Positions 40,694 to 40,895 of a DNA stretch of 64,000 bases are shown here, one piece after another. Numbering within the stretch: the first letter of the stretch is position 1; each line of letters opens with the position of its first letter. The DNA is from Octopus vulgaris (lineage: Eukaryota). The position numbers and the translations under genes are program-made. Below the pieces are notes generated by a model. It was given only the letters and a program-made list of their open reading frames with translations. It had not been told where the DNA came from and did no database searches. The DNA is taken from positions 40,548,001-40,612,000 of the forward strand of contig OX597839.1 of NCBI GenBank assembly GCA_951406725.2, given 5' to 3'.

Positions 40694-40699
<6 letters not shown>

Positions 40700-40891
40700 T
40701 ATATAGAAGGAGTTTCTACAGGACTAGTACTGTTTCATTCAAGAGAAATCTTCAGGAAGCTTCCTGAAGATTTCTCTTGAATGAAACAGTACTAGTCCTG
40801 TAGAAGCTCCTTCTATATAATAAATTAATTTTACTCTGCTATGTATTGAGTACCTTACTTACTGTGGTTAACCCCGAATCAACCCGGGACC

Positions 40892-40895
<4 letters not shown>
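40694..40895. mobile_element. (TA)n-embedded element with a 132-bp spacerless palindrome made of two hammerhead motifs
   Basis: 40694-40825 is palindromic about AAGCTT (40757-40762) with one mismatch. Confidence 0.88.
40758..40808 (+). ncRNA. Type I hammerhead ribozyme motif
   Basis: AGCTTC-CTGAAGA-t-TTC(tctt)GAA-t-GAAA-CAG(tactagtc)CTG-TA-GAAGCT: 6-bp stem I, intact core, stem III with palindromic loop, GUA cleavage triplet. Confidence 0.75.

Follow-up and report, generated by a model that had tools for sequence, protein, structure and literature searches.

The palindrome at the locus and its hammerhead motifs

Positions 40694–40825 of the window (the whole 64,000-nucleotide stretch of Octopus vulgaris DNA under analysis) form a spacerless palindrome of 132 bp, as the original prediction had claimed, with 66-bp arms that meet between 40759 and 40760 and a sole mismatch, T at 40713 against G at 40806 (Table 1). 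Within these 64 kb there was no second complex spacerless palindrome with arms of at least 15 bp. The span first proposed had run from 40694 to 40895, and of this only the palindrome proper stood; positions 40826–40894 are not palindromic and are instead the one-sided tail of a PLE, 69 bases that follow the right arm only and that in parent copies continue into the 5' UTR and the ORF. We number the element from window position 40758 as +1, and the predicted cut then falls after +45.

Table 1. Features of the palindromic locus, in window coordinates
Feature	Position	Strand	Basis
(TA)n-type microsatellite, left flank of the insertion target	40607–40693		sequence
Short arm: start region of the PLE transcript from +1 to +68, stopping at the near 3' end point, without a tail	40694–40761	-	palindrome and counts of arm ends
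Minus hammerhead copy; predicted cut 40717/40716; stem I broken at +49 (40713)	40710–40761	-	fold, pattern match
AGCT common to both arms, a microhomology join; 40758 is +1, the inferred capped start	40758–40761		at least 666 loci with the exact centre
Intact Hydra-type type I hammerhead; predicted cut 40802/40803	40758–40809	+	sequence, folds, Hydra rows of File S2
Predicted rival hairpin, +44 to +58, competing for the 3' strand of stem I	40801–40815	+	computed only
Scar hot spot of the family, +46 to +50; intact in the plus arm of the window locus	40803–40807	+	arm comparison
One-sided PLE tail, +69 to +137, stopping at the far 3' end point	40826–40894	+	counts of arm ends
(TA)n-type microsatellite, right flank; its initial bases also match the PLE's own continuation	40895–41030		sequence

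The hammerhead core pattern was matched at 40764–40802 on the plus strand and at 40755–40717 on the minus strand; taken bare, this pattern occurs in the window at chance level (9 matches against a shuffle mean of 3.9, with at least 9 in 11 of 100 shuffles). The plus copy joins CUGANGA, GAAA and NUH by three stems, the layout of a type I hammerhead: a 6-bp stem I (40758–40763/40803–40808), the core CUGAAGA (40764–40770), a 3-bp stem II (40772–40774/40779–40781), GAAA (40783–40786), a 4-bp stem III (40786–40789/40798–40801) whose 8-nt loop contains a palindrome, and a GUA site with the cut predicted after 40802. The three stems, the site and the predicted cut position proposed for this copy are supported, and so is the further proposal that the ribozyme, a type I PLE hammerhead, begins at the symmetry axis. 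The base of stem II has a U on either side in place of the G10.1-C11.1 pair, a layout that is common among the Hydra hammerheads in the cited part of File S2 of PMC8557442. On the minus strand stem I is disrupted by a G-to-A change at +49 (40713), and its predicted pairing is 0.00. The idea of two back-to-back hammerheads accordingly holds for the motifs, both of which are present, but not for two working ribozymes: besides the broken minus stem I, a TATA box is absent from both arms of the window locus, and its read-through transcript is predicted to form a single −107 kcal/mol hairpin in which the hammerhead stems are absent. Lacking a TATA box, and with a read-through RNA modelled as one long hairpin, the window locus is probably an inactive copy.

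An Rfam scan of the window returned nothing at the gathering score, and monomer folding z-scores were not significant (−0.57 for the plus copy, +1.47 for the minus copy). Stem II is weak, with a predicted pairing of 0.06–0.32 at lengths up to +70, and folding predicts a rival hairpin from +44 to +58 against stem I. When a G was placed at position 0 the predicted pairing of stem I was 0.83–0.99 in most lengths (0.51 in one), the program handling this G as an ordinary base, which a real cap is not; with 30–150 bases of parent upstream sequence it is the rival hairpin that is predicted to prevail (0.85–1.00). Conservation of the core in related copies had been set beforehand as a check on the ribozyme, and variation among those copies spared the positions that a hammerhead fixes, all five subfamily-level variable sites lying where the hammerhead leaves the base free (p = 5.5e-4).

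Elsewhere in the window, dispersed repeats of 160–300 bp lie around the palindrome in both orientations (39886–40440, 40500–40580 and 42809–43805; families D6, D7, D11, I1 and I2), and they resemble SINE pieces. A 287-codon open frame on the plus strand (33992–34855) has a cysteine-rich motif, presumably like the C-terminal part of a non-LTR retrotransposon. A further core of hammerhead type (CUGACGA..GAAA), with what may be a stem I, lies on the minus strand at 46760–46704 and is unrelated to the PLE family.

Genomic copies and the parent element

In the genome searched (2.8 billion bases in about 30 large contigs) the right arm with its tail gave 444 candidates, of which the 40 that were scored were all of 100% identity and nearly all accompanied by an inverted arm; a 25-mer from the arm has 3600 exact copies genome-wide. 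The exact palindrome centre of the window is present at at least 666 loci, in two subfamilies, while 714 arms have some other join and about 2720 arms retain upstream sequence with a TATA box (up to three mismatches allowed). TA-rich sequence lies on both sides at 30 of 30 loci, which agrees with the (TA)n target of the Hydra clade. Several of the locus sets were picked by pattern, so they are non-random, and they come mostly from contigs 1 and 2. The window palindrome is best read as a by-product of insertion, of which the genome has hundreds of examples. We hold with high confidence that the palindrome exists and that an element of a known kind gave rise to it as a by-product; that the window locus is a young PLE copy, made of the first 68 and the first 137 bases after the TATA box set head to head at AGCT, we consider likely.

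Related copies and a parent PLE, both named in advance as things to look for, were found. Many arms belong to inverted pairs that lie kilobases apart, and so to long insertions, and among the pairs listed 10 of 10 had one short end and one tail end. A search with the non-TA sequence after the tail gave 44 matches, mostly TA-flanked copies, and the parent continuation was reached through a single locus (L049); 18 copies extend beyond the tail, most of them into the ORF. Units of the form pLTR-ORF-pLTR were recovered at L130 (7.2 kb) and L132 (5.7 kb), the pLTR of L132 being identical to window 40760–40898. The hammerhead sits in the pLTR, sense to the ORF. In the parents TATAAA begins 29 bases before +1, a pyrimidine precedes the A, and the ORF starts at about +183.

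The parent has the features of an EN+ PLE: an ORF between direct pLTRs, an RT with YRDD followed by a VY..YIG endonuclease, an inverted 5'-truncated copy and a one-sided tail. The ORF is split over two frames in most parent copies, and Pfam searches with both halves gave no RT or GIY-YIG match and one weak unrelated match below the cut-off. Relatives of the ORF protein comprised 1638 unnamed proteins at E ≤ 1e-20 and one named RT-domain protein. The Hydra motifs RWK and DKT appear as IRWR (R for K) and SDKT in L129, and in translations read by eye the CxCx5C linker is present, CCHH is absent, and CxxC and CxH lie around a conserved E and N. By its motifs, linker and target the parent is assigned to the Hydra clade as a PLE inserting into (TA)n, an assignment from sequence in which the units of 5.7 and 7.2 kb exceed the length of generally under 3 kb given for that clade, a tendency in the paper rather than a strict rule.

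Six of seven parents have a common one-base frameshift in a C run between the RT and the endonuclease (L129:2989, L130:3018, L132:2959, L095:3537, L096:2882 and L134:2771, in oriented coordinates), and L133 is in frame; the frameshift may be programmed, a shared defect of the mobilised subfamily, or an assembly error. In L091–L110 the element carries within it, as the 3' part of the parent, about 2–4 kb that resemble TA/CA microsatellite. L093 is a near-perfect palindrome of 6.7 kb, L092 and L109 have 1000-residue ORFs of another element inside, and at L110:1–390 tail-to-tail tails surround a TA run beside a long copy, which suggests insertion into the flank of an earlier copy.

Ends and joins of the copies

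Short copies pile up at +1/+2. Position 0 is a G in 52 of the 77 arms in which the partner arm cannot supply the base, solo copies lying directly in TA included, and the position before +1 in the parents is T or C. In the part of PMC4859970 cited here, an untemplated G at such ends of LINE-1 and SVA insertions is taken to be a copy of the cap. In the assembled contigs of four sequencing runs, loose ends at +1 were present in all four. Because the short copies start at +1 behind an untemplated G, we infer from these sequences a capped transcript that would begin with stem I, its start being +1. The base at +1 behind the extra G was A in 39 arms, T in 9, G in 3 and C in 1 (52 arms), possibly a misread modified cap-adjacent base. 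The axis at +1 could be a 3' splice site (splice acceptor) rather than a cap, a reading that the T-rich sequence ending in YAG just before +3 would fit; we rank it lower, as the AG is kept in most short copies, only one extra base is common to the copies, and no joints were seen.

At the other side, the ends of 374 distinct arms fall into two groups, 175 at +58 to +72 (104 of these at +68) and 183 at +135 to +141. These two groups match the pair of internal start sites that delimit the tail in Poseidon PAc, an element whose protein cleaves both strands and extends them (PMC11167929). Within one insertion the two arms have the same bases at the subfamily sites (100/102, 93/94, 96/96 and 99/99), two of the 102 pairs differing at one such site. 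Changes at +41 to +54 were counted in 86 pairs, with sets selected on the cut site excluded from the pair and scar counts, and were found in the short arm only in 17 pairs, in the long arm only in 16, and in both arms in none. Because these changes beside the predicted cut are private to one arm, we favour two separate cDNAs from the capped RNA, joined at AGCT, over fold-back, and regard such an origin as probable.

Fold-back would have one cDNA turn at the AGCT palindrome, prime itself and be copied into the second arm. AGCT is indeed self-complementary and the commonest join, junction palindromes are interpreted as self-priming in the cited portion of PMC3846280, and the match of subfamily sites across arms would follow equally well. 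Copying of this kind should mirror the scars, however, and a change was seen in one arm in 33 of 86 pairs and in both in none; many joins, moreover, consist of two complete arms with filler between them. In one insertion of a later sample (arms L272 and L273) G+49 is lost in both arms, with 17 bases of upstream sequence present, and this mirrored scar may be inherited. Fold-back is largely refuted unless the scars post-date insertion, and we rate it as very unlikely. Still more improbable is that the 200-bp palindrome is a non-autonomous element of its own, or a working two-way ribozyme cassette, and is copied as a unit. Hundreds of near-identical copies with the exact centre speak for this, but the joins vary widely (714 arms have a different one), separate subfamilies show this same centre, there is no TATA box, terminal inverted repeats are missing at the element ends, and the −107 kcal/mol hairpin predicted for the read-through RNA is without hammerhead stems.

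A MITE or foldback DNA transposon was rejected on account of the 69-base tail at one end, the varied joins, and arms that are the end of an RT element. A non-LTR retrozyme was likewise set aside, the window locus being head to head with a single intact motif and not a head-to-tail tandem.

Changes beside the predicted cut

Positions +46 to +50 were changed in 38 of 203 arms, compared with 4–11 in six other five-base windows. Of 205 arms that lack upstream sequence 40 carried these scars, compared with 0 of 71 arms that have it (Fisher p = 3e-6). The commonest, found in 194 arms, is the loss of G+49, four bases from the cut; among the first 30 G+49-loss arms none had a TATA box, compared with 7 of 30 consecutive baseline loci, and four TATA-bearing arms carry a scar of the +46 to +50 kind (L168, L186, L313 and L351). 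The single mismatch of the window palindrome is a G+49 scar.

Breakpoints at +46 were called where none of the three bases before +46 agrees with the element, with the same test at +43 as control, and were found in 62 arms at +46 and 7 at +43. By our reading the 62 comprise 30 stem-I microhomology joins, 12 indels on the cut bond and 20 fresh 5' ends, the last to be set against 4 at +43 (p = 0.0015; one control base only). Seven of the 20 fresh ends have a partner arm that stops at +44 to +47 as well, in two cases exactly at +46 and separated by filler, and 1 of the 4 at the control position likewise has a near-symmetric partner. The base before the fresh +46 ends is T in 15 of 20, not G as at +1. 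On balance, we lean towards these genomic copies recording cleavage in vivo. In the literature searched, beyond the reach of which lay most subscription papers and bioRxiv supplements, no earlier description of such scars was found.

The palindromes might have the same origin with the ribozyme uncut, the scars then arising from RT stumbling in stem I or from processing of a hairpin at the 3' end of the cDNA. Such a hairpin would be able to form only in copies ending at +1; the hot spot coincides exactly with stem I's 3' strand; its peak is G+49 rather than the cut bond, a peak that simple jumping across a nick does not predict; and stem-I microhomology alone accounts for 30 of the 62 breakpoints at +46. 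For the Poseidon hammerhead, furthermore, zero RNA-seq reads ended at the cut, and cleavage was dispensable for insertion in vitro (PMC11167929). What this account leaves unexplained are the 20 fresh ends at +46 without homology compared with 4 at +43, the partner arms ending at +44 to +47, the 12 indels on the cut bond itself, and the preceding T, which differs from the G at +1; we therefore view it as a possible but doubtful alternative to in vivo cleavage. That the scars come from faulty sequencing or assembly of microsatellite-flanked repeats is improbable. The C-run frameshift in six of seven parents could be a homopolymer error, and among the contigs listed from four other runs none bridged a scar exactly; contigs of other sequencing runs had no scar at 2 in 100, and contigs drop rare variants. 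Against error stand the 0 of 71 arms scarred when the identical local sequence is accompanied by upstream sequence, the similar rate in solo (6/28) and palindromic (34/177) arms, and the homopolymers of the scar-bearing arms, which show few changes. A deaminase hot spot ranks lower too, the other G positions of the arms being quiet.

Proposed mechanism and its significance

Taking these results jointly, the best explanation, and in our judgement a likely one, is two separate reverse transcriptions of a capped PLE RNA that is probably cut, some of the time, by its 5' hammerhead. A tandem parent copy would be transcribed from its TATA box with a start at +1, and the PLE protein would cut both (TA)n strands, with one cDNA initiated at +68, the near site, and the other at +137, the far site. 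Where the sites in the 5' repeat copy were used, both cDNAs would run off at the cap and their 3' ends would anneal, mostly at AGCT; use of the sites in the 3' repeat copy would give long inverted elements. Only the 5' hammerhead copy would fold well, and the enzyme would usually cross the cut or the stem, leaving a scar in about one arm in five. A more specific model, which we put forward only tentatively and would not bet on, is that the hammerhead cuts in the germ line, and only in the capped 5' copy, with the cap nucleotide tipping stem I over the rival hairpin, which would silence the internal copy, and that the RT crosses the cut; the thousands of genomic mini-palindromes would then be a fossil record of in vivo cleavage and of two-strand priming.

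If this were true, cleavage 45 bases from the cap would strip the RNA of its cap ahead of the ORF, and the RNA could in this way be switched from translation to a role as template or back. Cleavage by a viral 5'-UTR ribozyme can drive cap-independent translation according to the cited part of PMC13725137, and this is one possible use of cleavage in the octopus PLE. Taken alone the window locus would be an ordinary dead copy, and the interest rests with the family, which bears on two questions: whether PLE hammerheads cleave in vivo, their function being called unclear in the cited text of PMC8557442, and how the head-to-head inversions of PLEs originate. An RNA of 137 bases, whose start and two priming ends are fixed, and a scar that can be counted make both questions testable.

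Comparison with known systems

The octopus PLE resembles the Hydra clade, including Hydra-1_Obim, as described in the cited sections of PMC8557442, in its RWK-like and DKT motifs, CxCx5C linker, C-terminal GIY-YIG without CCHH, (TA)n targets, U and U flanking stem II, inverted 5'-truncated copy and one-sided tail. Hydra-1_Obim is another family, and its hammerhead as listed there is unlike that of the octopus PLE, two motifs of which had 0 matches in the part of the PMC8557442 supplement searched. By the same partial source, the octopus PLE differs from the clade in its unit length (5.7–7.2 kb with a microsatellite-rich 3' part, compared with under 3 kb), its tail (about 69 bases compared with 30–40) and its loop III (8 bases compared with 0–3 in the Hydra rows examined).

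With Poseidon PAc of Anolis (PMC11167929) it shares the cutting and extension of both strands, two internal start sites bounding the tail, an AT-rich target, and a hammerhead near the ORF start. The Poseidon hammerhead overlaps the ORF start, whereas that of the octopus PLE begins at the putative start of transcription, some 180 bases ahead of the ORF; and where no trace of cutting in vivo was detected for Poseidon PAc, the octopus copies have scars and ends at the predicted cut. The Penelopes of Adineta vaga, in the cited portion of PMC3846280, likewise have head-to-head inverted pLTRs, junction palindromes, an optional tail, and a pLTR that contains TATA and initiator-like motifs; their inversions were put down there to self-priming on an antisense template, whereas the arm-private scars of the octopus copies favour two sense-strand cDNAs.

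The minimal hammerheads of PLEs (PMC4209133) and the animal non-LTR retrozymes (PMC7229834; bioRxiv 10.64898/2026.07.22.740005), each as far as the cited parts describe them, also have a type I hammerhead in a pLTR with a palindromic loop III, and many dispersed copies, some as close pairs on opposite strands. Compared with these, the octopus motif lacks the G10.1-C11.1 pair and has a stem III long enough to close as a monomer. The octopus PLE is not a tandem retrozyme, though short tandem by-products exist (L117/L118). At these loci (G000:C7:106788892-106789074), L112 and L049 there are short head-to-tail arrays in which a cDNA that has reached +1 goes on along another copy ending past the tail, and these arrays suggest that retrozyme-like tandem units arise from the octopus PLE. 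LINE-1 twin priming, as outlined in the cited part of PMC4859970, inverts a different part of the RNA, whereas the two arms of the octopus PLE copy the same stretch from two fixed sites.
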